Assembly (NCBI GenBank): GCA_030681525.1
Contig: JAUXSD010000344.1
Coordinates: 1,342 to 65,341, forward strand
From: Solirubrobacteraceae bacterium
GTDB taxonomy: Bacteria; Actinomycetota; Thermoleophilia; Solirubrobacterales; Solirubrobacteraceae
Length of the DNA stretch: 64,000 nt
Direction of reading: 5' to 3'
In this document: positions 5,147-64,000 of the stretch, in pieces
Numbering within the stretch: position 1 is the stretch's first letter
Layout: the number at the start of each line of letters is the position of its first letter
Notes under the pieces: model-generated
What the model saw: only the letters and a program-made list of their open reading frames with translations
What the model was told of the DNA's origin: nothing
Database searches by the model: none
Program-made: the position numbers and the translations under genes

Positions 5147-5998
5147 GTGGCGGTGAGCGCGTTCGGCGGCGCCTCGGTGCGGGAGGCGCTCGACTCGGCC
5201 GTCATCGCGATCGCGGCGGCGGGGTCAGACACCCCGCGGCTGGACGCCGAGGTGCTGCTGGCGGACGCACTGGGCGTGGATCGCACCGCGCTGTTCGTGG
5301 ATCCGGCGCGCGAGGTGAAGGGGCCCGCGGTGCGGGCCTTCCAGGACGCGGTGCGGCGCCGCTCGGCCGGCCGTGAGCCGGTCGCGTACATCACGGGGCG
5401 GCGCGGCTTTCGCCACCTCGAGCTCGCGGTGGACGCCCGGGTGCTCGTGCCGCGGCCGGAGACCGAGCTGCTCGTGGAGATCGGCATCGAGTCGCTGGCG
5501 CAGGGGGCGCGGGTCGTCGACGTCGGGACCGGCAGCGGCGCGGTGGCGCTGGCGCTCGCGCAGGAGCGACCGGACCTCGAGGTGCTGGCCACCGACTCGA
5601 GCGCCGGCGCGCTCGACGTCGCGCGGGCCAACGCGGCGCGGCTGGGGCTCGACGGGGCGGTCACGTTCTTGACGGGCGACCTGCTCGCGGGCGTGGGTGA
5701 GGTCGATGCCGTGCTGTCCAACCCGCCGTACGTCGCCGAGCGCGAGCGCGCGGCCCTGGCGCCGGAGATCACCCGCCACGAGCCGCCGGGCGCGCTGTTC
5801 GCCGGCGAGGACGGCCTCGATGTCATCCGCCGCCTCGTGCCGGCCGCCGCGGACGCGGGCGCGCGGCTGCTGGCGGTCGAGGTGGGGGAGGGGCAGTCCG
5901 ATGCCGTCGCCCAGCTCATCCACCTGGCCGGCTTCGTGGCCGTCCACGGGCGCCGCGACCTGGCGGGCATCGAGCGCGTCGTGGTCGGTAAGCGATGA
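5147..5998 (+). CDS. prmC: Release-factor glutamine N5-methyltransferase (HemK/PrmC)
   Basis: NPPY motif (VLSNPPYV) and SAM-binding VDVGTGSGAVAL. Positioned after prfA. Confidence 0.9.
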   Translation: MAVSAFGGASVREALDSAVIAIAAAGSDTPRLDAEVLLADALGVDRTALFVDPAREVKGPAVRAFQDAVRRRSAGREPVAYITGRRGFRHLELAVDARVLVPRPETELLVEIGIESLAQGARVVDVGTGSGAVALALAQERPDLEVLATDSSAGALDVARANAARLGLDGAVTFLTGDLLAGVGEVDAVLSNPPYVAERERAALAPEITRHEPPGALFAGEDGLDVIRRLVPAAADAGARLLAVEVGEGQSDAVAQLIHLAGFVAVHGRRDLAGIERVVVGKR

Positions 5999-54802: not shown

Positions 54803-57508
54803 GTGCCGCAACGCCGCCATGGCTTCAGGGCCGAACGTGCACCGCTGCGCGGGGCCACCCCGGCGCTCTGGATCGCCGCGCTGCTGACGCTCGCCGCGCT
54901 CGTCGGCCTGGGTACGTCGCTGCACAGCTCGCAGACGCAGGCGCGCCAGACGATCGAGGATCGTTTCGCCGAGCGCGCGCGGCTCAGCGCCGCGCTGATG
55001 GACTCGCTCTTCTCTTCGTCAGCGAGCGCCTCTCAGCCTCGCAACGCGCAGCGCTTCGGCGGCGCACGCGTCACCGCCGCCCAGCTCGGCGCGGAGGCCA
55101 GGCGCGGCCAGCTCGGCAGCCTCGTGCTGCTGCGCGCCGACGGCAGCGTCATCGCCCGCTCTCCGAACACGCCGGATGCGATCGTGCGCGCGCTCGCCGC
55201 GAAGCCGTCGTTCGTGCGGGCGGCGCTGACCGGCAACCACATCGCGCTGGGTGACCTGACCCCCGGCGCCGGCGGCAAGGACACGATCCAGTACGCGCAG
55301 CCGTTCAACACCCAGGCTGGGCGCCGCGTGCTCGTCAGCGGCATCGGCCCGCAGGTGCTCTACGGGTTCATCGGCGGCTACCTCGCCCAGATCCCCGAGA
55401 AGACCGGCGGTAGCGCCTACCTGCTCGACGGGCGCGGGGCGCTCGTCGCCGGCCCGAGCAGCGGGCTGCCGATCACCGAGCGCGGCCTGCCCCAGGCGGT
55501 CCGCGCCACGTCGAACGGCGCCTTCGGCAACGGGCGCTGGTTCGCCGCCAGCCGGCTGAAGAACTCGCAGTGGAGCGTCGCCCTCACGGCACGCGAGAAG
55601 ACGCTCTTCGCCTCGGTCACCGGCGAGGGGCGGTGGGTCCCCTGGCTGCTGTTCGCGGCGTTCGGCCTCGTCGCCGCCGCCGCCCTGCTGCTCGTGACCC
55701 GCGTGGTGCGCGGCGCCGCCGCGCTGCACGTCAGCCAGGAGCGCTACGCGCTCGCCGTCGAGGGCGCCAACGACGGGATCTGGGACCGCGACTTCGTGAC
55801 CGGCGTCACCTACTTCTCTCCGCGCTGGAAGGACCTGCTCGGCTACACGCCCGAGCAGGTCGGCGACGATCCCGACGAGTGGATGGCCCGCGTGCACCCC
55901 GACGACGTCGCCGGCGTGCTGGCGGCGTTCGACGCGCACCTGCGCGGCGACGAGCCGTCCTTCGTGAGCGAGCACCGCATGCGCCACAGCGACGGTGAGT
56001 ACCGCTGGTTTTTGACCCGTGGCGTGGCGATCCGCGATCGCCACGGCAAGCCGACCCGGATGGCGGGCTCGACGTCGGACATCACGATCCGCAAGGCGGC
56101 CGAGGAGCTGCTGCGCCGCAGCGCGCTGCACGACGCGCTCACCGGGCTGCCCAACCGGGCGCTGTTCCTCGACCGCCTGGCGTCGTCGCTGGAGCGCACG
56201 ACGCGCGAGCCCGGGCACCGCTGCGCGGTCATGTTCCTCGACCTCGACCGCTTCAAGCGCATCAACGACAGCTTCAGCCACGCCGTCGGCGACGAGCTGC
56301 TCGTCGTGCTCGGCCAGCGGCTGACCGCCATCCTGCGCCCCGACGACACCGTCGCGCGCGGCGGCCCCGACGGGTTCATCGCCCGGCTCGGCGGCGACGA
56401 GTTCACGATCCTCGTCGAGAACCTCGACACGCCCGACCGGGTGACGGAAATCGCGCTGCGCATCGAGCGCGCGATGCAGGAGCCCTTCCAGGTCCTCGAC
56501 CGCGAGCTGTTCGTCAGCACGAGCATCGGGATCGCGGTCAGCGACCCGGCGGTGACCGCGCTCGAGCTCATGCGCAACGCCGACATCGCGATGTACGACG
56601 CCAAGCGCAAGGGTACCGGGCGCTGGTCGGTGTTCAGCAGCGAGATGCACAGCCACGTGCTCGGCCAGATCGAGCTCGAGACCGAGCTGCGCGCGGTCAT
56701 CGAGGAGCGCCGCCTGCGCGTCTTCTACCAGCCCGTCGTCAGTCTGCTGACCGGCGAGCTCGAGGGCTTCGAGGCGCTCGCCCGCTGGCCGGCCGGGCCC
56801 GATGAGGTCTCGCCCAGCCGCTTCGTCGCGATCGCCGAGGACACGGGCCTCATCGCCGATCTCGGCCAGCTGGTCCTCGACGAGGCCTGCGAGCGCCTCA
56901 GCGACTGGCGCCGGCGCGGAATCGCCGGGCCGCACATGACGATGAGCGTCAACGTGTCAGGCCGCCAGCTCAGCCATCCGCAGCGGCTCGTCGGCGATGT
57001 CGAGGCGGCGTTGCGCCGCAGCGGCCTGCCGGCGACCTGCCTGTGCCTGGAGATCACCGAGAGCACCGTGATCAGCCGGCCGGAGCGCGCCCGCGTCGCA
57101 CTCGATCAGCTCGCGCGGCTCGGAGTCCGGGCCGAGATCGACGACTTCGGCACGGGCTACGCGTCGCTGACCGTCCTGCAGTCCTTCTCGGGCGACACGC
57201 TGAAGATCGACCGCTCGTTCATCGGCACGATGCACGAGGACGCCGGGCACGGCGCGATCGTGCGCGGGATCGTGGCGCTCGCCCACAACCTCGGCATGCA
57301 CGTCGTGGCGGAGGGCATCGAGCACCCCGAGCAGCTTTCGCTGCTGCGCTCGATCGGCTGCGAGTTCGGTCAGGGCTACCTCTTCGCGCGGCCGATGGAC
57401 GCCGGTGAGCTCGAGCCGACGATCATGGCGTGGGAGCCGGAGCGCTTCGCGGCCGGGGAGCTGCGCATCACACCGCCCGCGCCGCTGCCGCAGCTCAGGT
57501 CGGTCTAG
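54803..57508 (+). CDS. Membrane-bound c-di-GMP signalling protein: periplasmic sensor - TM - PAS - GGDEF - EAL
   Basis: Two TM segments flank a loop of about 260 aa. PAS (YALAVEGANDGIWDRD). RLGGDEFTIL (GGDEF). FEALARW...DDFGTGYAS...KIDRSF...EGIE (EAL). Confidence 0.88.
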   Translation: MPQRRHGFRAERAPLRGATPALWIAALLTLAALVGLGTSLHSSQTQARQTIEDRFAERARLSAALMDSLFSSSASASQPRNAQRFGGARVTAAQLGAEARRGQLGSLVLLRADGSVIARSPNTPDAIVRALAAKPSFVRAALTGNHIALGDLTPGAGGKDTIQYAQPFNTQAGRRVLVSGIGPQVLYGFIGGYLAQIPEKTGGSAYLLDGRGALVAGPSSGLPITERGLPQAVRATSNGAFGNGRWFAASRLKNSQWSVALTAREKTLFASVTGEGRWVPWLLFAAFGLVAAAALLLVTRVVRGAAALHVSQERYALAVEGANDGIWDRDFVTGVTYFSPRWKDLLGYTPEQVGDDPDEWMARVHPDDVAGVLAAFDAHLRGDEPSFVSEHRMRHSDGEYRWFLTRGVAIRDRHGKPTRMAGSTSDITIRKAAEELLRRSALHDALTGLPNRALFLDRLASSLERTTREPGHRCAVMFLDLDRFKRINDSFSHAVGDELLVVLGQRLTAILRPDDTVARGGPDGFIARLGGDEFTILVENLDTPDRVTEIALRIERAMQEPFQVLDRELFVSTSIGIAVSDPAVTALELMRNADIAMYDAKRKGTGRWSVFSSEMHSHVLGQIELETELRAVIEERRLRVFYQPVVSLLTGELEGFEALARWPAGPDEVSPSRFVAIAEDTGLIADLGQLVLDEACERLSDWRRRGIAGPHMTMSVNVSGRQLSHPQRLVGDVEAALRRSGLPATCLCLEITESTVISRPERARVALDQLARLGVRAEIDDFGTGYASLTVLQSFSGDTLKIDRSFIGTMHEDAGHGAIVRGIVALAHNLGMHVVAEGIEHPEQLSLLRSIGCEFGQGYLFARPMDAGELEPTIMAWEPERFAAGELRITPPAPLPQLRSV

Positions 57509-57738
57509 ATCGCGAGCACGATTGCGAGGACGGCGCCGAGCGTGGTGGCGCCCAGATGCGCCAGCCGCCACGGCATGACGCCCGGGAACTCGCGCCGCAG
57601 GCGTGCGGCGGTCGAGACGGTCGTGCGCCGCTCGAGCGGCACGTCCAGCCCGGCGGCCAGGCGCTCGACGTCCTGATCTCCCCAGCATCGCGGATCGAGG
57701 CGAAGGACCCCCGCCCAGCTGCGTCCACGATGACCCAC
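57505..57738 (-). CDS. Possible small C-terminally TM-anchored protein (start uncertain)
   Basis: The 3' two-thirds has uniform G/C-ending codons and ends in LGATTLGAVLAIVLAI. The 5' third is less coding-like. Confidence 0.3.
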   Translation of the reverse strand: MGHRGRSWAGVLRLDPRCWGDQDVERLAAGLDVPLERRTTVSTAARLRREFPGVMPWRLAHLGATTLGAVLAIVLAI

Positions 57739-57812
57739 AGCTCGCCGCGATCGCGCCGGATCGCCGACACCCTGCGTTTGACGACCGCCGGCTCGGGCAG
57801 AGCGGTGGAGGC

Positions 57813-58136
57813 ATGCGCGTGGTCGTCGACAACAGCAGCGGGGGCGACACCCAGCTAGCGATCAGCGTGACCGCAGGACTGCGCGGCTGCGGCCACACCG
57901 TCGAGGTCGTCGAGCCCGAGCCGTCCTCGATGTTCGACACGGCGGTGCACGTCGTCTCGACGGGGATCGTGCTGCGCGTCGACGAGCGCCCGGCGCCGGC
58001 CGAGCTCGAGGAGATCGCCGAGGTCGTGCGCGAGGCGCTGCTGCGCCACCCCAGCCAGCGGCGGCGCACGCGCGCCGTCCCGGTGGCGCTCGGCACGGGC
58101 GGCCAGGTGCTGACCTGGATCGACGTCTTCGGCTGA
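57813..58136 (+). CDS. Hypothetical 107-aa protein
   Basis: Internal ATG of the listed ORF with high GC3. Converges on the NYN gene with a 1-nt gap between the stops. Confidence 0.5.
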   Translation: MRVVVDNSSGGDTQLAISVTAGLRGCGHTVEVVEPEPSSMFDTAVHVVSTGIVLRVDERPAPAELEEIAEVVREALLRHPSQRRRTRAVPVALGTGGQVLTWIDVFG

Positions 58137-58137
58137 C

Positions 58138-58509
58138 TCAGGCGTCGATCTGCGCGCGAAACGCCGACGCGGGGAACGTGCTCGCGCCGGCGGCATGGAC
58201 CTGCTGTGAGAGCACGCCGTCGGAGGTGACGACGCGCACCGACGCCGGGTCCGGCGCCGCGCGCACGCGCCGGACGATCTCGTCGTCGGCCGAGTTGGCC
58301 CGCGGGCGCTTGGCGTGGGCGACCTCGATGACGCTCGACACGATCGGCGGGCGCGGCGGCTGCTCGAAGACGACCATGACGTCCTCGCCCTCGGCGGCGG
58401 CCCAGCGCTCGAGCCGGTCGACGAGTGCCACCATCGCGGCGTGGCGGTCGCGCCACCAGCCGTCGGGACGGGTCCCGATGACGTTCATGCCGTCGACGAT
58501 CCAGCGCAT
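58138..58509 (-). CDS. NYN-domain (YacP/Rae1-like, PIN-related) predicted ribonuclease
   Basis: MRWIVDGMNVIGTRPDGWW... then a SADDEI acidic motif and VVTSDGVL near the C-terminus, which is the YacP-like pattern. Confidence 0.7.
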   Translation of the reverse strand: MRWIVDGMNVIGTRPDGWWRDRHAAMVALVDRLERWAAAEGEDVMVVFEQPPRPPIVSSVIEVAHAKRPRANSADDEIVRRVRAAPDPASVRVVTSDGVLSQQVHAAGASTFPASAFRAQIDA

Positions 58510-58530
58510 CGTGAGCCGTGCGGAGCGCGG

Positions 58531-59040
58531 CTACCGGCGCCGCAGGCGGGCGAGCAATCGCGTCTTGGCGTTGAACGCGGCCTTCATCGCGCGATCGGCG
58601 CGCGATCCGTCGGGCGCCAGCAGCCCGATCTGGCGCGCGAACTGCATCTGGTCGAAGACGACGAAGTTCGTCGCGATCGTGCCGTCGCGGATGACGAAGT
58701 GGTCCATGCCGTCGATCGCCACGGTGCGCCCCGTGGCGTCGATGCCCTGAAACGGCGCGCCGGTGTGCGTGCCGGTCAGGTGCCAGTGCACGAAGACGTC
58801 CTCGCCGTCCTCGGCGACCGCGACCACGCGCATGTGCAGGTCCGGCAATGCCGCGAAGAGGGTCTCGAAATAGGCGGCCATCGCGTCGGCCCCACGGACG
58901 GTCGTCTCCGGGAAGCGCTCGACGGTCGCGTCGGTCCAGACGGCCCGCAGGGCTGCTGCGTCGCGCTCGTTGATGACCGCGAACGTCCAGCGCACGAGCT
59001 CGCCGTTGCTCGCGCCGGCGGGTGGCTTGGCGATCGGCAT
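58531..59040 (-). CDS. SnoaL/NTF2-like fold protein (ester-cyclase-like)
   Basis: VRWTFAVINERDAAAL...MAAYFETLFAALPDL...VFVHWHLTGTHTGAPFQGI.ATG pattern. Confidence 0.65.
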   Translation of the reverse strand: MPIAKPPAGASNGELVRWTFAVINERDAAALRAVWTDATVERFPETTVRGADAMAAYFETLFAALPDLHMRVVAVAEDGEDVFVHWHLTGTHTGAPFQGIDATGRTVAIDGMDHFVIRDGTIATNFVVFDQMQFARQIGLLAPDGSRADRAMKAAFNAKTRLLARLRRR

Positions 59041-59090
59041 GCCCGAAGGCTAACCGCCCCGGCCGGCGCGTCGCGGCGGACCGGACGCGC

Positions 59091-59435
59091 TCAGCGATCA
59101 TCCTGGTCGCGCACCGCCACGGCGATCTCGTCGGCGTTCCAGGTCAGCGTGATGTCCCAGTGCCGCGCCCCGACCTCGATCAGCGGCGCGACGTTCGCGA
59201 GCGCCACGCGCGCGCCCTCGCCGGGATCGCCCGTCCGCACGAAGCGCAGGCTGAGCTTCGTGTCGAGCACGAGCGCCACGAGCACGCGCTGGTAGGGCGT
59301 GCACATGAGCATGCGGTCCATCGTGGGTCGATCGGTGAGCGAGGCCGGGCAGGTGTAGCGCACGGAGACGCGGCCCGCGGGCGCCTGCAGCGCGGCGGCC
59401 ACGTCGGGCGGAAACGCCGGCGCCGCCCGGCTCAC
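59091..59435 (-). CDS. Unknown 114-aa protein, co-transcribed with rtcB
   Basis: The GTG start lies 4 nt after the rtcB TGA. Uniformly G/C-ending codons. No motif recognised, and it is not archease-like. Confidence 0.6.
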   Translation of the reverse strand: MSRAAPAFPPDVAAALQAPAGRVSVRYTCPASLTDRPTMDRMLMCTPYQRVLVALVLDTKLSLRFVRTGDPGEGARVALANVAPLIEVGARHWDITLTWNADEIAVAVRDQDDR

Positions 59436-59439
59436 CGCG

Positions 59440-60777
59440 TCAGTCCTTGTAGGGATCGAACGTGTCCGCGCCGGCCATCGCGACGCCGATCGGCGTCAGC
59501 CGGTGGAGGATCTCGACCGAGTCGCCGTGCATCGCGAGCACCGCGTCGAGGCGCTTGTACGCCGCGGGCGCCTCGTCGGCGGCGCCGCCGCGCAGCTCCA
59601 CACCCGCCGTCGCGAGCTGCTCCTGCACCAGGGCGAAGTCGATCTCGCCGGCCTTGATGCGCCCGCGGCGCTTGACCATCCGCCCGCCGGGGTGCCGCGG
59701 GCAGAGCGTGAAGCGGTCGTGCTCGCCGACGCCGGCGCGGTCGCGCTCGTGGCGGTACTGCGCCCACGTCACCCAGGTGGGGCAGTCGCGCTCGGAGCAC
59801 TCCGCGCGGTTGCCCATCCGCCCGGCCGCCTTCGTGCGGGACATGACGCGACCCGCGCCGTGGACCGTCGAGAACAGCAGGCCGGCGCTCTCGTCGCTCG
59901 CGGTGCCGCGCAGGATCACCGACGGCTCGCCCATCGTCGCGCCGACGAAGCCCTCCTGGCCGGGGAACGCCGGCGTGCAGCCCTTGCGGATGACCCAGGC
60001 ATCGACGCCGTGGTGGCGCTCGCGCCAGGCGAAGTTGTGGTGGTTGTGGACCTCGTAGGTCGCCGTCGCGCCGAGGATCTCGAGGACCTTGTCGACGACG
60101 ACGTCGCGGCCGGCGTAGGCGTACTCGCCGGCGAGGCTCATCGCCGCGATGTAGTCCTGGCCGAGCTGCGAGTCGACGTGCAGCAGGACCGGCGGCGAGT
60201 CCATCTCGCCGTCGGGGCCGCGCTCGTCGAAGCGCCGTCCGGCGGCGAGCGCGAGAAAGCCCGACGCGGTCTTGTGACCGAACCCGCGGGAGCCGAAGTG
60301 CACGCCGACCCAGACGTTGCCGTCATCGCCCGCGAACAGGTCGACGTAGTGGTTGCCCGCGCCGACCGTGCCGAGCTGGTTGCGGGCCATCTGCACCATC
60401 CGGCGCTGCGGCGCGAAGTCGGCCTTGTGGATGGCGTCGAGCACGGGGTGGTCGACCGGCTCGGCGTTGTTGCGCCCGACGCCGAACGAGATCCGCGCGA
60501 ACACCTCGTCCATGATCCGCGGCAGGTCGTCGCGGATGTCGTCGACGCGCACGTCGGTGCGGACGGCCTTGTTTCCGCACGCGATGTCATACCCGACGCC
60601 GGACGGCGAGACGTGCTCGGGGTAGGCGACGACGCCGCCGATCGGCTGGGAGTAGCCGACGTGGCCGTCGGCGCAGATCGCCGCGGCGACGGCGTCGCCG
60701 GCCTCCGCGCAGCGGCGCAGCTGGTCGACGGCGCGCGGCTCGATGTCGCCGCGGACGGTGATCGGGATCTCTGCCAT
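59440..60777 (-). CDS. rtcB: RNA 3'-phosphate/2',3'-cyclic phosphate ligase RtcB (with a Cys/His-containing insertion)
   Basis: Start at the internal ATG (MAEIPITVRG). CADGHVGYSQPIGGV, GYDIACGN, GTVGAGNHYVDLF, HFGSRGFGHK and VHNHHNF motifs. Insertion ECSERDCPTW...LCPRHPGG. Confidence 0.92.
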   Translation of the reverse strand: MAEIPITVRGDIEPRAVDQLRRCAEAGDAVAAAICADGHVGYSQPIGGVVAYPEHVSPSGVGYDIACGNKAVRTDVRVDDIRDDLPRIMDEVFARISFGVGRNNAEPVDHPVLDAIHKADFAPQRRMVQMARNQLGTVGAGNHYVDLFAGDDGNVWVGVHFGSRGFGHKTASGFLALAAGRRFDERGPDGEMDSPPVLLHVDSQLGQDYIAAMSLAGEYAYAGRDVVVDKVLEILGATATYEVHNHHNFAWRERHHGVDAWVIRKGCTPAFPGQEGFVGATMGEPSVILRGTASDESAGLLFSTVHGAGRVMSRTKAAGRMGNRAECSERDCPTWVTWAQYRHERDRAGVGEHDRFTLCPRHPGGRMVKRRGRIKAGEIDFALVQEQLATAGVELRGGAADEAPAAYKRLDAVLAMHGDSVEILHRLTPIGVAMAGADTFDPYKD

Positions 60778-60803
60778 GCGGTCATCGTGGCAAGCGCGGC
60801 GGC

Positions 60804-60884
60804 GCGCGGCGAGCGGATTCGAACCGCAGCGGACGAGGGTTCGAACCCACGGGCGTCTGGACCGGCGTGCCAACCGTTCCGCGC
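60804..60884 (-). ncRNA. tRNA-like element with two T-loop motifs in the rtcB 5' leader (not a canonical tRNA)
   Basis: On the minus strand, GGGTTCGAACCC (60837-60848) and GCGG-TTCGAAT-CCGC (60813-60827) are followed by an acceptor-like GCCGCGC that can pair with the 5' GCGCGGA. No anticodon arm can be drawn by hand. Confidence 0.35.
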
Positions 60885-61073
60885 ACGAATTTCGCCTTGC
60901 CACGCGGCGACACGTGCTTTACCGTGAGCGCAGTCATGCTCTCCCAGGCCGACACGACGATGCTGCTCATCCACGGCGCCCTCAGCGCCGGGTTCGTCTC
61001 GTGCAAGCCGGTTGACGAGCCTGCACAGCGCACCAACGACGCGGCCGACGCGGCTTAGCGGGAGACCTCTCAC

Positions 61074-62261
61074 ATGGCTCCCGCGACGATCGCGGGAGCT
61101 GCGCCTCGTGCCCGGACCGGGCGTGGGGCGGGGTGGGACCGCGACTCCATCATCATCGCCATCCGTGAGTGGGTGGCCACATACGGCGAGCCGCCTCGTG
61201 CGGCCGACTGGAACCCCTCCTCGGCGAAGTGGGCCGGCCAGCTGTGGCGCGTGGAGCGCTACCGCGAGGGCCGTGCCGACGGGTCGCCCTGGCCCGCGCT
61301 GAACTCGGCCAAGCGCCCGTTCGGCGGGTCGCTGAACGAGGCGATCCGGGCGGCCGGCTACGAGCCGGCGCGGCCGGGTCCGATGCGGCGTGCCGACGTC
61401 GATCCGCAGCAGGCGCACCGGGCGGTCATCAGCCCGGAGGGTCGGGCGATGGTCGCGGCGGCACTCGCGCAGGCGCGTGACGCCGAGCGGCGCGTGGCGC
61501 AGCTCGAGGCGCGGCTGGATCGGGCCGGCGAGCGGGCGCTGCGGGCAGCCGCGGAGCGCGACGCCGCACGGCGGGCCGGCGGCCGATCGGCGGCCACCAA
61601 GCCGAAGGTCGTTCGTGAGCGCGTCGTCGACGACGCGGCGCTCGCCCGCGCCCAGCGCCGGGCGGCCGCCGCCGAGGCGAAGGCCGAGACGACCATCCGT
61701 GACGTCCGCGAAAAGTGCGCGGAGGCGCGGATGGACGCGGCCGAGGCGCGCACGGCGGCCAAGCGGATGGCGGCGAAGCTCGAGCGGGCGGAGGCGACGA
61801 TCGGGACGCTGCGCGGCGAGCGCCGCGAGCTCAAGGCGGCCGGCGACCGGCTGGCCGACGAGCTCGTGGTCGCCGAGCGGCTGCTCGAGCGGGCGCGCGC
61901 CGACGCCGAGCAGGCACCGGCGGTCGTCACCGTGCGCCAGCAGGCGCCCGAGGCGGCCGAACTGCACGCCGCGCGCGTCGCGGCGGCACGTGACCGCCGG
62001 GCCGCCGCCGAGGCCGAGCTGCGGGCCGCCCGCGCCGAGCGCGAGCTGCGCGAGACGGTGTCGGCGCTGCGCGGCGAGGCGCGGCGGCTGACGCCGGCGG
62101 AGCTCGCCGAGCTGCGGATGACCGGCCCGAGCGGCCCCGCCGTCATGGCGGAGGCGCTGCGGCTGCTCGCCGCGGCCCGCAAGACCAACAACCCGACGCA
62201 CATGCAGGAGGCCCTGCGGCGCGTCGCCCAGGCCGCCGTCACCTGGCAGGAGCGGATCTAG
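61074..62261 (+). CDS. Homing-endonuclease-associated-repeat (HEAR) domain protein with a long Ala/Arg/Glu coiled coil
   Basis: WDRDSIIIAIREWVATYGEPPRAADWN...RPFGGSLNEAIRAAGYEP matches the HEAR pattern. About 300 aa of heptad-like AEAR-rich sequence follow. GGGAGA lies 9 nt before the ATG. Confidence 0.7.
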   Translation: MAPATIAGAAPRARTGRGAGWDRDSIIIAIREWVATYGEPPRAADWNPSSAKWAGQLWRVERYREGRADGSPWPALNSAKRPFGGSLNEAIRAAGYEPARPGPMRRADVDPQQAHRAVISPEGRAMVAAALAQARDAERRVAQLEARLDRAGERALRAAAERDAARRAGGRSAATKPKVVRERVVDDAALARAQRRAAAAEAKAETTIRDVREKCAEARMDAAEARTAAKRMAAKLERAEATIGTLRGERRELKAAGDRLADELVVAERLLERARADAEQAPAVVTVRQQAPEAAELHAARVAAARDRRAAAEAELRAARAERELRETVSALRGEARRLTPAELAELRMTGPSGPAVMAEALRLLAAARKTNNPTHMQEALRRVAQAAVTWQERI

Positions 62262-62377
62262 CCCCCCGGGGTCCGCTCCTGCCGGGGCGGCGGACCAGCG
62301 GTGTGTCGAATGCTTCGCGCCCAGCGCGAACGATTCGACACACCACCCGCCGCAACCGAACCGACCTGGTGCACGGC

Positions 62378-62839
62378 ATGACCTCTCGCCTGACCGAAGA
62401 CTTCCTCCGAGACGACGCGGGCTCACCGCTCGGCCCCGGCATGCCGAGCGGTGCGCCGCTGCGCGCCGACGGCCAGTCGCACTACGACGCCTGGCAGGCG
62501 CTGCTGCGGCGCGATCCCTGCTCGTACTGCGGGGCGATCGGCGCCGCGGGCACGGTCGACCACGTCGACCCGCGCTCGCGCGGCGCGCGCGGCCTGGGCA
62601 CCGTGCACGGCTGGATCAACATCGCCGGCGCGTGCTCGCGCTGCAACGGGTCCAAGCGCGACCTCGAGCTGCTCGTGTTCCTCTATCGCCGTCGCTGGCA
62701 GGGCCACGCCGCCCGCCCCGGCGAGCCCGCGCGCGCGCCGCGGCGCAGCGTGCGCCGGTGGCCCCATGAGGCCACCGCCCACCTGCGGGTGGGGCGGGCC
62801 GGCCGCCGCGCGCGCGTCGATACGGTGACGCCACCGTGA
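62378..62839 (+). CDS. HNH endonuclease (start ATG 62378 or 62441)
   Basis: CSYCG...VDHVDPRSRG...HGWINIAGACSRCNGSKRD (Cys4/HNH pattern). Confidence 0.75.
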   Translation: MTSRLTEDFLRDDAGSPLGPGMPSGAPLRADGQSHYDAWQALLRRDPCSYCGAIGAAGTVDHVDPRSRGARGLGTVHGWINIAGACSRCNGSKRDLELLVFLYRRRWQGHAARPGEPARAPRRSVRRWPHEATAHLRVGRAGRRARVDTVTPP

Positions 62840-63618
62840 CCGGATCGATCCACAGCCGCGAGGCAGACGACGAGCGCGCCAGGCAGGTCGCCGAAGGCGG
62901 GCTGATCCTGCGCGGTCTGGTCGGATCGACCGTGCACGGGCTGGCGAACCCCGGCACGGACGACCGCGACGAGATGGGCGTCTGCATCGAGCCGCCCGCC
63001 TACGTCATCGGGCTGCGCGGGTTCGAGCACTACGTCTCGCGCACGCAGCCCGAGGGCGTCCCGTCCGGTCCCGGTGACCTCGACCTGACGATCTACGGCC
63101 TGCGCAAGTTCTGCCGTCTCGCGCTGAAGGGGAGCCCGACGGTGCTGCTGCTGTTCTTCGTCGAGGGTGAGCATGTGCTGACGCGAACGCCGACGGGCCA
63201 GCGGCTGCAGCAACTCGCGCCGGCGTTTCTCTCCCAGCGCACGGGGCGGGCGTTTCTCGGCTACCTCGAGGCGCAGCGGCGCAGCCTGCTCGGCGAGCGT
63301 CACGCGACGCGCACCCGCGAGCTGTCGGCGCAGCACGGCTACGACACGAAGTACGCGATGCACGCGCTGCGGATCGGCGTGCAGGGCATCGAGCTGCTGC
63401 GGACGGGTCGCATCACGCTGCCGGTGCCCGAGCCCGATCGCGACCGCCTGCGCGCTGTCCGCGCCGGCGACGTGCCGCTGGGCGACGTGATCGAGCAGCT
63501 CGACGACGTGACGGCACGCCTCGAGCAGCTCACCGCCGAAAGCGGGCTGCCCGCGTTCGCGGACGCCGAGCGGGTCGACCGCTTTCTCGTCGATGCCTAT
63601 CGCGAGGCCTGGGACTGA
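62836..63618 (+). CDS. Minimal Pol-beta-fold nucleotidyltransferase (YcgL/PF10127-like)
   Basis: GS-x-DxD pattern LVGSTVHGLANPGTDDRDEMGV, followed by a helical domain (YDTKYAMHALRIGVQGIELL). The GTG overlaps the HNH stop (GTGA). Confidence 0.65.
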   Translation: MTGSIHSREADDERARQVAEGGLILRGLVGSTVHGLANPGTDDRDEMGVCIEPPAYVIGLRGFEHYVSRTQPEGVPSGPGDLDLTIYGLRKFCRLALKGSPTVLLLFFVEGEHVLTRTPTGQRLQQLAPAFLSQRTGRAFLGYLEAQRRSLLGERHATRTRELSAQHGYDTKYAMHALRIGVQGIELLRTGRITLPVPEPDRDRLRAVRAGDVPLGDVIEQLDDVTARLEQLTAESGLPAFADAERVDRFLVDAYREAWD

Positions 63619-63653
63619 CCTACACGTTCGCGTCAGGCCGTGATTCGCCAGCC

Positions 63654-64000
63654 CTATCCCGGTGAGCTCCCCGCGGGCAGGCCGGCGCGCACGTACCCGG
63701 CGATCGCGCTCGCGGTGGCCGGCCGCAGGTCCGAGAACGTCCAGCGCTTGCCGCCGAACTTCGGCTCGACGCTCAGCCGCGCGCGCGTGCGGCGCGGCCA
63801 GACGAGCGACTGCTGCGCCCGGGCCGTGTCGCGAAACCGCAGCGAGCGGACGCGGTTGCCGACCGCGTCGTCGAGCAGCCACAGCAGGCGGCGGTCGGTG
63901 ACCGCCAGCAGCGTGCTGGGGCTGGCCCACGTCGCGGTCGGGGTGACGAGCGCGACGGGCTCGTCGGACTCGAGCGCCTCGAGCAGCTCGCGGCCGAGCG
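63654..64000 (-). CDS. Partial CDS (C-terminal 115 codons), bacterial PH-like pattern; N-terminus outside the window
   Basis: Open frame with G/C-ending codons running into the window edge: ...LLAVTDRRLLWLLDDAVGNRVRSLRF...KRWTFSDL... then TAG at 63654-63656. Not in the ORF track because its start lies outside the window. Confidence 0.5.
   Translation of the reverse strand, partial: LGRELLEALESDEPVALVTPTATWASPSTLLAVTDRRLLWLLDDAVGNRVRSLRFRDTARAQQSLVWPRRTRARLSVEPKFGGKRWTFSDLRPATASAIAGYVRAGLPAGSSPG

Follow-up and report, generated by a model that had tools for sequence, protein, structure and literature searches.

Does an rtcB gene set among unfamiliar neighbours mark an undescribed conflict system, or does it belong to a kind of RNA-repair locus that is already known? 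The question arises from a 64-kb stretch of DNA (hereafter the window; 72% G+C) on contig JAUXSD010000344.1 of a Solirubrobacteraceae bacterium (GCA_030681525.1), in which coding frames are clearly marked by G+C at the third codon position (GC3). There, the gene of the RNA ligase RtcB (59440-60777, minus strand) is divergent from a plus-strand unit made of a gene for a protein of 395 amino acids (aa) with a HEAR-like N-terminal domain and a long coiled coil (the HEAR gene, 61074-62261), an HNH endonuclease gene (62303-62839) and a gene of the RlaP nucleotidyltransferase family (62836-63618). An initial annotation had combined these genes and their neighbours into a single RNA cleavage-and-repair or toxin/immunity system. 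Comparison with related loci leads us to another reading, to which we grant slightly better than an even chance, namely that the locus derives, by reduction, from a tRNA-array/RNA-repair island. A long tRNA array (L-array) island is a run of roughly 15-43 tRNA genes, and the window, holding none, is therefore not an L-array member but at most a derivative.

RNA-repair genes of the locus

The 445-aa product of rtcB matched PF01139 at 219.2 bits (cut-off 27, E = 1.6e-64), and its motifs YDIACG, GAGNHY, GSRGFG, HNHHNF and VHGAGR (residues 63, 139, 162, 244 and 305) are all intact; following established RtcB structures, we take them to be the metal-binding and GMP-histidine sites. RtcB enzymes join 2',3'-cyclic-phosphate or 3'-phosphate RNA ends to 5'-OH ends in a GTP- and Mn2+-dependent reaction, and the window protein is predicted from its sequence to be such a 3'-phosphate/2',3'-cyclic-phosphate RNA ligase. 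The initial annotation was right to place an RNA-repair locus with RtcB here. The protein scored below the NCBIfam equivalog cut-offs of PRK09588 and of the PrfH-linked TIGR03073.

The annotation had also stated that rtcA, rtcR, archease and Ro60 are missing from the 64 kb, and this was borne out. Neither RtcA nor RtcR (tblastn with the E. coli proteins) nor Ro60 (tblastn with the Ro60 of a relative) matched anywhere in the window, and archease had no match among the eight proteins of the locus and ten small open reading frames (ORFs; 106-207 aa) elsewhere in the window, ORFs below 70 aa lying outside that scan. ARAGORN, and Rfam at gathering score, detected no tRNA gene in the 64 kb. Solirubrobacterales appear to lack RtcR.

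RlaP, the Pfam name of PF10127 (RNA repair pathway DNA polymerase beta family), was matched at 92.5 bits against a cut-off of 23 (E = 4.3e-26), with the Pol-beta motif present as GSTVHG...DDRDE. Its GTG start overlaps the HNH stop by 4 nucleotides (nt), and the gene lies 2 kb from rtcB on the opposite strand. Members of the family add 1-2 nucleotides to the 3'-OH of damaged RNAs and occur in rtcB-rlaP-rtcA operons of Pseudomonas fluorescens and P. aeruginosa (PMC12776372, Carruthers, Fatma and Huang 2025 preprint); in jumbo phages, they travel with RNA ligases and sets of tRNAs (Iyer et al. 2021, PMC7824862). Both papers credit the name RlaP to earlier comparative work. RtcB and RlaP are thus an already-published RNA-repair pair, and the suggestion that a PF10127 nucleotidyltransferase is linked to RtcB systems identified a real partner through a link that is already in print (PMC12776372, PMC7824862).

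HNH endonuclease and tRNA arrays

The HNH protein (PF01844, 28.2 bits against a cut-off of 21.4, E = 2.1e-6) has relatives at tRNA arrays. Searched by tblastn against 72,556 plasmids, it returned 28 matches, mostly from Nostoc, Tolypothrix, Calothrix and Acaryochloris and from megaplasmids of Mycobacterium, Mycolicibacterium and Pseudarthrobacter. All four plasmids that were opened carry the gene at the head of, or inside, an array of 24-41 tRNA genes: pCC7120delta with 24 (the published Anabaena trn operon, HNH at its head), the actinobacterial megaplasmids pCBMA213_1 with 32 and pACHL01 with 41, including a transfer-messenger RNA, and an M. intracellulare plasmid with 26. The window protein is 39% identical over 114 aa to the HNH of pACHL01 and 45% identical over 56 aa to that of pCC7120delta. 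An HNH homing endonuclease has been described as conserved upstream of long tRNA arrays, and rtcB was itself found in array neighbourhoods, sharing the regulation of the array under translation stress (PMC8421152). By these likenesses, we assign the window HNH to the DNA-level homing-endonuclease family of tRNA arrays; nothing ties it to RNA cleavage, the part in which the initial annotation had cast it.

A phage origin of the HEAR/HNH unit was considered and found no support: neither gene was found in IMG/VR, and the HNH had only two weak matches among GenBank phages. RtcB and RlaP do have viral relatives.

Wider relatives of RtcB

A scan of one genome per species (GTDB) recovered 80 loci with RtcB relatives of 49-74% identity, the best of them mostly in Thermoleophilia. 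A same-strand tRNA gene lies within 200 nt upstream of rtcB in 13 of the 80, and L020 (loci are cited by L numbers) is a 14th, its tRNA being recognised by Rfam only. The tRNA directly before rtcB is most often tRNA-Cys(GCA) or tRNA-Arg(TCG), at a distance of 20-70 nt, and many loci have rtcB at the end of a long tRNA array (24 tRNAs in L016, 21 in L019, 18 in L017). Ro60 is found upstream of rtcB in ten of the 80 loci as a long gene inside the arrays (TROVE 1.8e-41, vWA_Ro60 6e-61), and RlaP inside the array in three (L015, L027 and L035), these homologues being 53-54% identical to the window RlaP and part of tRNA array/Ro60/RtcB cassettes. Viral contigs gave a similar picture, with 11 of 80 RtcB loci lying within 8 kb of at least three tRNA genes and several inside arrays of 19-32.

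A single GTDB rtcB locus of the 80, L020, also holds the coiled-coil protein and the HNH. Its order is HNH, HEAR gene, tRNA-Phe/Lys/Met, Ro60, tRNA and rtcB, with orientations that match those of the window.

Outside the window, a recurring cassette emerged from these loci, composed of a tRNA array, Ro60, tRNA-Leu, RlaP, a conserved protein that we call c13, sometimes a BTAD regulator, tRNA-Gly/tRNA-Arg, tRNA-Cys and rtcB. A bacterial tRNA array with Ro60 and RlaP inside it is, as far as we found, not described in the literature, and neither is the Thermoleophilia cassette of tRNA array, Ro60, RlaP, c13 and RtcB. In 11 array-bearing loci, no Y RNA family was reported by Rfam at gathering threshold.

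Examples of the cassette, all on one strand and with arrays of 18-24 genes, are L016:414-7299, L019:200-6513, L017:15-7293, L015, L027, L035 and L049, from Thermoleophilia metagenome-assembled genomes (MAGs). Apparent frameshifts of Ro60 in L035, L049 and L017 may be long-read assembly errors, and we do not claim these genes as pseudogenes. The c13 protein (~122 aa, MGMPYRARINERT...NSLHKLDTL, no Pfam match) occurs once or twice per cassette (L028:210-578, L015:3932-4294, L027:4466-4831, L017:5285-5647 and L035:4355-4720), a second paralogue standing upstream of Ro60 (L015:916-1209, L016:3149-3466 and L035:1150-1416); it had no tblastn match anywhere in the window, and no link to the window's 114-aa ORF was found. 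In IMG/VR, rtcB stands amid arrays of 19-32 tRNA genes in L172, L168, L173, L169 and L149/L150, at 36-60% G+C. The tRNA directly before rtcB in L020 (5869-5973; Rfam 45.5 bits, ARAGORN negative) carries an insertion of ~33 nt in the anticodon region, and this disrupted or intervening-sequence tRNA beside an RNA ligase is worth a look. Truncated 3' halves of tRNAs lie directly upstream of rtcB in L022 and L026.

Gene content of close relatives

A metagenome scan with the coiled-coil protein yielded 28 loci at 68-95% identity, onto which all window proteins were mapped; most of these are metagenome contigs or MAGs, and their presence/absence counts are not phylogenetically independent. The order that they share runs SecA...LytR_C(+), NYN(-), [SnoaL(-)], [114-aa ORF, rtcB(-)], coiled-coil(+), [HNH, RlaP(+)], PH-like ORF(-), in which bracketed genes are variable. 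The HEAR gene is the constant core of the unit, and HNH and RlaP are sporadic: the HNH was found in L095/L111, L103 and L108, with fragments in L109 and L090, and L108 has the order HEAR gene, HNH, RlaP, while in six loci without HNH and RlaP the PH-like ORF comes next after the coiled-coil gene. The ligase gene occurs only in the window's species (L084-L086), L095/L111, L110 and L116, and behaves as a single-gene presence/absence polymorphism. In L222, precisely the rtcB ORF is missing, and the 114-aa ORF has its start codon at the position expected for that of rtcB; in L092 and L096, the sequence is preserved as far as the start of rtcB and then runs on into SnoaL. N- and C-terminal stubs of SnoaL were left in L109, L100 and L093.

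Such turnover could be that of a plain mosaic, in which rtcB, HNH and RlaP reached a plastic chromosomal spot separately and, apart from the activity proper to each enzyme, have no common history or function. The three genes are indeed present or absent independently of each other among close relatives, the region has seen many insertions and deletions, and the window belongs to the core chromosome (ATP synthase, SecA and a hibernation-factor gene). Against this, rtcB and the HEAR gene have diverged in parallel across three families, RtcB/HEAR identities falling from 79/80% in L110 to 75/63% in Patulibacter minatonensis and 58/61% in L020; the trio of rtcB, coiled-coil gene and HNH recurs in a different chromosomal context, among flagellar genes in L095/L111; and RtcB, RlaP and this type of HNH are each tied independently to tRNA arrays elsewhere. 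We therefore regard a plain mosaic as improbable.

The divergent pairing of rtcB and the HEAR gene extends to the cultured P. minatonensis (L223, KI912613.1) and, judged by these sequence identities, is an old one. A profile search placed the HEAR family next to rtcB only in L020, L110, L111/L095, L116 and L223, and a sequence scan confined the family to Solirubrobacterales-type genomes. The proposal that HNH and HEAR genes co-occur with rtcB was in this sense sound, both recurring with this rtcB lineage in L020 and L095/L111, and the HEAR gene also in Patulibacter.

The HEAR call itself stands at the level of the family and is weak for the window protein. PF18780 reached 13.5 bits with the latter (E = 0.09, cut-off 26) and was matched by 15 of 28 homologues at E <= 0.1 (best 1.3e-5), which points to a HEAR domain across the family. 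The domain was modelled with confidence as a helical bundle, for which Foldseek returned no significant PDB neighbour (best E = 1.2, with weak matches to DsrC and LexA), and neither the HEAR protein nor RlaP nor the HEAR-family profile gave anything useful in sequence searches of the PDB.

Two further peculiarities were seen. A HEAR/coiled-coil homologue of 68% identity stands in yet a different genomic context, with a pair of IS3-type transposase genes immediately before it (L107:1702-3047), and this fits mobility or rearrangement of the HEAR unit. At L111:5952-9722 (also L095:1-269), the RtcB relative is a 1256-aa ORF with two large insertions, the first directly after the YDIAC active-site cysteine, which fit inteins; RtcB of L110 lacks 31 aa at the same YDIAC insertion point.

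The control region between rtcB and the HEAR gene

The two divergent genes are separated by 297 nt (60778-61073). An alignment of 18 homologous intergenic regions shows a fixed architecture that, by its pattern of sequence conservation, belongs to the HEAR gene. Its first element is the 12-nt palindrome GGGTTCGAACCC (60837-60848), which occurs once in the window against 0.13 expected and is near-invariant in all 18 aligned relatives, whether rtcB is present or not. In 19 of the 27 HEAR gene loci searched, it lies 223-238 nt upstream of the HEAR gene start, a spacing that is kept whether the divergent neighbour is rtcB, the 114-aa ORF, SnoaL or NYN; Patulibacter has a matching layout with the variant GGGTTCGAATCC. 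We consider GGGTTCGAACCC a conserved cis element of the HEAR unit and a putative operator or endonuclease recognition site.

Downstream of the palindrome, a candidate promoter of an upstream-ORF/HEAR operon (60897-60925, plus strand) combines a -35 TTGCCA, a 17-nt spacer and a -10 TACCGT, and its hexamers fall in the near-invariant blocks CGCAAG and ACGGTAA of the 18-region alignment. A scan for consensus sigma-70 promoters and intrinsic terminators was empty over 57500-64000, as expected because the genome has 72% G+C. The upstream ORF (40 aa, 60936-61058, plus strand) begins 7-10 nt after TACCGT, so that the transcript would be nearly leaderless, and it ends in a TAG that shares nucleotides with GGGAG, the ribosome-binding site of the HEAR gene. 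In ~20 relatives, the ORF keeps a length of 36-41 aa while its sequence diverges, and an ORF of 47 aa takes its place in Patulibacter; the upstream ORF may encode a leader peptide.

From this architecture, one could see in the HEAR protein mainly a dedicated transcription regulator of rtcB and not a subunit of a homing endonuclease, a functional analogue of RtcR that binds GGGTTCGAACCC between the divergent genes, with the upstream ORF coupling HEAR synthesis to translation stress. The divergent rtcB-HEAR pair is kept from the window to Patulibacter (RtcB 75%) and L020, the palindrome lies at a fixed distance from the HEAR gene promoter, the upstream ORF has a conserved length and a stop that overlaps the HEAR ribosome-binding site, the HEAR gene is intact in many genomes without HNH, and rtcB of Anabaena is induced by translation stress (PMC8421152). 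However, the HEAR gene, upstream ORF and palindrome are unchanged in ~20 loci that lost rtcB, which indicates that HEAR has a role independent of rtcB; it is the HEAR gene, not rtcB, that the palindrome accompanies; the structure model found no significant DNA-binding match (Foldseek best E = 1.2); and the HEAR protein is missing from 79 of the 80 GTDB and all 80 viral RtcB loci. A dedicated rtcB regulator is for us an unlikely, though not negligible, explanation. As the HEAR gene, upstream ORF and palindrome persist without rtcB or HNH, they must have a function of their own; foremost among the alternatives is that they regulate themselves or the divergent gene.

A bolder version, which we hold to be distinctly improbable, would make the rtcB/HEAR pair an undescribed RNA-repair control circuit of Solirubrobacterales, in which HEAR binds the T-arm-like GGGTTCGAACCC and steers the HNH to tRNA genes, and stalling on the upstream ORF reports tRNA damage. 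If true, one protein family would link tRNA-array homing with stress-induced ligase expression.

The initial annotation had read part of this region as a tRNA-like leader or RNA mimic. This 81-nt element (60804-60884, minus strand) consists of GGGTTCGAACCC, which is the first "T-loop" of the supposed leader, a second T-loop-like motif GCGGTTCGAATCCGC (60813-60827, minus strand) and a 6-bp terminal helix. Bacterial Y RNAs beside rsr and rtcB contain tRNA-like domains, and a working structured RNA could be imagined here, either as a Y-RNA-/tRNA-like module released from the 5' leader of rtcB by processing or as one that senses tRNA-targeting nucleases or acts on them as a decoy. The element stands exactly where relatives have real tRNAs, at 20-70 nt before rtcB; two GGTTCGAA-type motifs and a 6-bp acceptor-like stem are present; and its second motif is most canonical in rtcB-bearing loci, reading GGTTCGAnTCC in the window, L110 and L111, and in L096, and decayed in most rtcB-less loci. 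These features are outweighed by the structural evidence. The top cmscan match of the element was tRNA-Sec at 18.6 bits (E = 0.59) against a gathering score of 47, ARAGORN was negative and no Rfam family reached its gathering score. Its folding energy was no better than that of shuffles (z = -0.02), an Rfam E-value scan of 14 relatives found no tRNA-like match as a counterpart, and RNAalifold detected no covariation in six homologous leaders, giving a positive, unfavourable term and pairing the two TTCGAA motifs with each other. Ro60 was not found in the window, and the first motif is kept as a DNA palindrome with rtcB present or not. We accordingly rejected the element as a tRNA or Y RNA, and a functional structured RNA is in our view very unlikely.

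What may remain is a trace of a tRNA. In its best local alignment, with the tRNA-Arg(TCG) immediately before rtcB in L023 and from anticodon loop to T-arm, the element scored 37, against a mean of 22.9 for shuffles (standard deviation 2.5, maximum 30). It is possibly a degenerate tRNA-Arg(UCG)-like relic within the control region, a tRNA origin being plausible and weakly supported.

Three other loci show repeats or palindromes of their own in this place. In L223 (9440-9700), three tandem units of ~60 nt (GCCGTCCAGCCGCAGGAACCTGCAGCGCGCC...), absent from the window, separate the palindrome from rtcB. Other perfect palindromes stand just upstream of rtcB in L004 (GCACTTGAATTCAAGTGC, ~5900-5960) and, as repeats, in L012 (GGCTAACAnnGTTAGCC, ~5900-5990), and their differing sequences suggest lineage-specific repressor control of rtcB.

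Origin and role of the locus

The gene identities, their presence and absence among relatives, the rtcB-HEAR linkage and the tie of both the HNH family and the more distant RtcBs to tRNA arrays were observed directly. From them, we infer descent of the locus from an array-bearing island, its in vivo substrates and a role for the palindrome. RtcB would ligate 2',3'-cyclic-phosphate or 3'-phosphate ends to 5'-OH RNA ends and RlaP would restore one or two nucleotides to trimmed 3' ends, the two acting most plausibly, by analogy, on tRNAs cut by ribotoxins. The palindrome GGGTTCGAACCC, the promoter, the 40-aa ORF, the HEAR gene and the HNH would form a DNA-level unit of the homing-endonuclease type that accompanies long tRNA arrays in replicons of cyanobacteria and actinobacteria. 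L020, a relative from Thermoleophilaceae, would represent a fuller state, with tRNA genes and Ro60 still between the HEAR gene and rtcB; the window lineage would have lost both, keeping at most the tRNA-Arg(UCG)-like scrap, and close relatives would have gone on losing rtcB, HNH and RlaP piecemeal.

Several observations weigh against this history. In a neighbour-joining tree, the window RtcB falls in a clade with L001-L004 and Patulibacter, which are mostly not beside arrays, and its sister clade, at 55-59% identity, holds the array-linked RtcBs; this placement weakens direct descent from an array-linked RtcB. L020 is the sole locus to join the HEAR gene and HNH with tRNAs, Ro60 and rtcB. The likeness of the HNH to cyanobacterial proteins is confined to the 56-aa catalytic core, and the weak case for a tRNA relic consists of a single local alignment that owes its score to two TTCGAA motifs, Rfam finding nothing to back it in relatives. 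The palindrome is much more constant than one would expect of a relic in decay and must therefore have a present function, which descent from an island does not specify. Three opposite-strand genes set RlaP apart from rtcB, and most assessable rtcB-bearing relatives (L095/L111, Patulibacter) lack it; because of this separation and absence, its functional coupling to rtcB here rests on family precedent. Finally, tRNA arrays or Ro60 may lie elsewhere in the genome, outside the window.

Among known systems, L-array islands such as the Anabaena trn operon (PMC8421152), pCBMA213_1 and pACHL01 come closest. They have the same kind of HNH and, as in the window, rtcB in the neighbourhood, RlaP and rtcB flanking the HNH unit of the window; RNA-processing genes are enriched around their arrays, and they bear signs of horizontal spread and decay. 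In contrast to them, the window HNH is preceded by the HEAR/coiled-coil gene, upstream ORF and palindrome, which PMC8421152 does not describe. The window locus also has RlaP after the HNH and is chromosomal, within a core region.

Hughes and colleagues reportedly described, in 2020, an operon of rsr (Ro60), Y RNA, rtcB and rtcA under RtcR control in Salmonella and other bacteria. The present locus recalls it through the linkage of RtcB with Ro60 in distant relatives (10 of 80 loci) and through a tRNA-like sequence between partner genes and rtcB. It differs in that no Ro60, RtcA or RtcR was found in the window and the tRNA-like stretch is unsupported as a structured RNA, and the relatives carry real tRNA arrays, not Y RNAs. 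The rtcB-rlaP-rtcA operon of Pseudomonas (PMC12776372) likewise has an RlaP gene close to rtcB and an expected chemistry that is alike, whereas RlaP of the window is on the opposite strand, 2 kb off, overlapping the HNH and outside the rtcB operon, again with no RtcA or RtcR found. With these defining genes tested and not found, the locus is neither an Rsr/Y-RNA operon nor an RtcBA/RtcR operon.

A last comparison concerns phages. SegB of phage T4 is a GIY-YIG enzyme, not an HNH. The T4 tRNA gene region with this homing endonuclease (cited in PMC8421152) and the phage tRNA arrays carrying RtcB or RlaP (Iyer et al. 2021, PMC7824862) resemble the locus in having a free-standing homing-type endonuclease beside tRNA and RNA-repair genes, but no phage genes are evident near the window locus.

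By analogy, the locus is best filed with the RtcB/RlaP repair sets of tRNA-array islands and would work like them. The Solirubrobacterales rtcB would then join a picture in which RtcB, RlaP, Ro60 and HNH travel with supernumerary tRNA arrays as a back-up and repair kit against tRNA nucleases, and the locus would capture a late stage of the decay of an array island. Its new feature, as far as we found, is the control region common to rtcB and the HEAR gene, for which we found no description in the literature. Palindrome, upstream ORF and HEAR gene, divergent from rtcB, constitute a small testable unit conserved to P. minatonensis, which could explain the control of rtcB without RtcR, or target finding by array-linked homing endonucleases.

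Neighbouring genes

It remains to place the genes around this core, on which the idea of one ensemble of nucleases, ligase, nucleotidyltransferase and RNA mimic depended. The initial gene list was essentially correct, with the rtcB, 114-aa, NYN, coiled-coil, HNH and PF10127 genes at their proper coordinates, and had skipped the SnoaL-like gene between the 114-aa ORF and NYN. Downstream of rtcB on the minus strand follow the 114-aa ORF (59091-59435; GC3 0.95, no Pfam or NCBIfam match), the SnoaL-like gene (58531-59040; PF07366, 2e-25) and the NYN/YacP-like gene (NYN_YacP, 58138-58509; PF05991, 3.6e-11); beyond them, a plus-strand LytR_C-like ORF (~57813-58136) is weakly supported by a profile match. 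The partial ORF at the window edge (63654-64000, stop at ~63654; GC3 0.97) is present as had been noted; it lies on the minus strand, convergent with RlaP, and the PH domain ascribed to it has no Pfam support, no match being found.

In such an ensemble, seven parts would make one RNA cleavage-and-repair or toxin/immunity system, with NYN and/or HNH as nuclease, RtcB as ligase, RlaP as end-healing enzyme, the 114-aa protein as adaptor or immunity factor and the leader as RNA mimic. Adjacency speaks for it: 4 nt separate the rtcB stop from the start of the 114-aa ORF, the HNH and RlaP genes share 4 nt, and rtcB, the 114-aa ORF, SnoaL and NYN follow each other on one strand with short gaps. The co-occurrence test that the annotation had itself put forward, once run, told against it. 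The 114-aa ORF, NYN, SnoaL and PH-like ORF are found without rtcB in nearly all relatives, and conversely L110, L111, Patulibacter and the 80 GTDB loci have rtcB but none of the four, the exception being a weak SnoaL match in L018. In detail, NYN stands beside the HEAR gene in ~20 loci without rtcB and is not near rtcB in L110, L111, L223 or the 80 GTDB loci; tblastn found neither the 114-aa ORF nor NYN in any of those 80; and SnoaL is present without rtcB in many relatives. Moreover, SnoaL carries its own conserved -10-like hexamer, the HNH family is of the DNA homing type of tRNA arrays, the RNA element has no conserved structure, and PADLOC models recorded generic similarity only, between the HNH core and the HNH domains of PtuB and PDC-M01B (8.7e-7), the other seven proteins matching nothing. 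NYN, SnoaL, LytR_C and the PH-like ORF belong to the backbone of ~20 related loci without rtcB; together with the 114-aa ORF, they are ordinary chromosomal neighbours and not parts of a system. The claim of a single ensemble is thereby largely refuted, and we would give it very little credence. The check in relatives strikes out four of the seven proposed parts, and an rtcB gene with odd neighbours should pass such a check of presence and absence in close relatives before it is called a new conflict system.

The 114-aa ORF is probably co-transcribed with rtcB here. As an RtcB partner it was rejected: in all five long contigs, its homologues (55-71% identity) lie away from any rtcB, in unrelated neighbourhoods, and it is present in L222, where rtcB is precisely absent. 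The family counts 70 homologues (P0001-P0070) without Pfam match and, it seems, does not extend beyond Solirubrobacterales-like soil metagenomes. AlphaFold2 modelled the 114-aa protein with high confidence as a beta-sandwich (predicted local distance difference test score, pLDDT, 90.9) with no significant PDB match (best E = 0.1, to lectin-like beta-sandwiches).

The hexamer of SnoaL, TAGCCT (59046-59051, minus strand), lies 6 nt before its ATG. In L090-L114, it is kept at a distance of 6-8 nt from the ATG that follows, which belongs to SnoaL or, in loci with a SnoaL deletion, to NYN, and this conservation suggests leaderless transcription of SnoaL/NYN independent of rtcB. The remainder of the window is core chromosome, with genes for ATP synthase subunits, Sua5, RpiB, a hibernation factor, SecA and a GGDEF/EAL protein.

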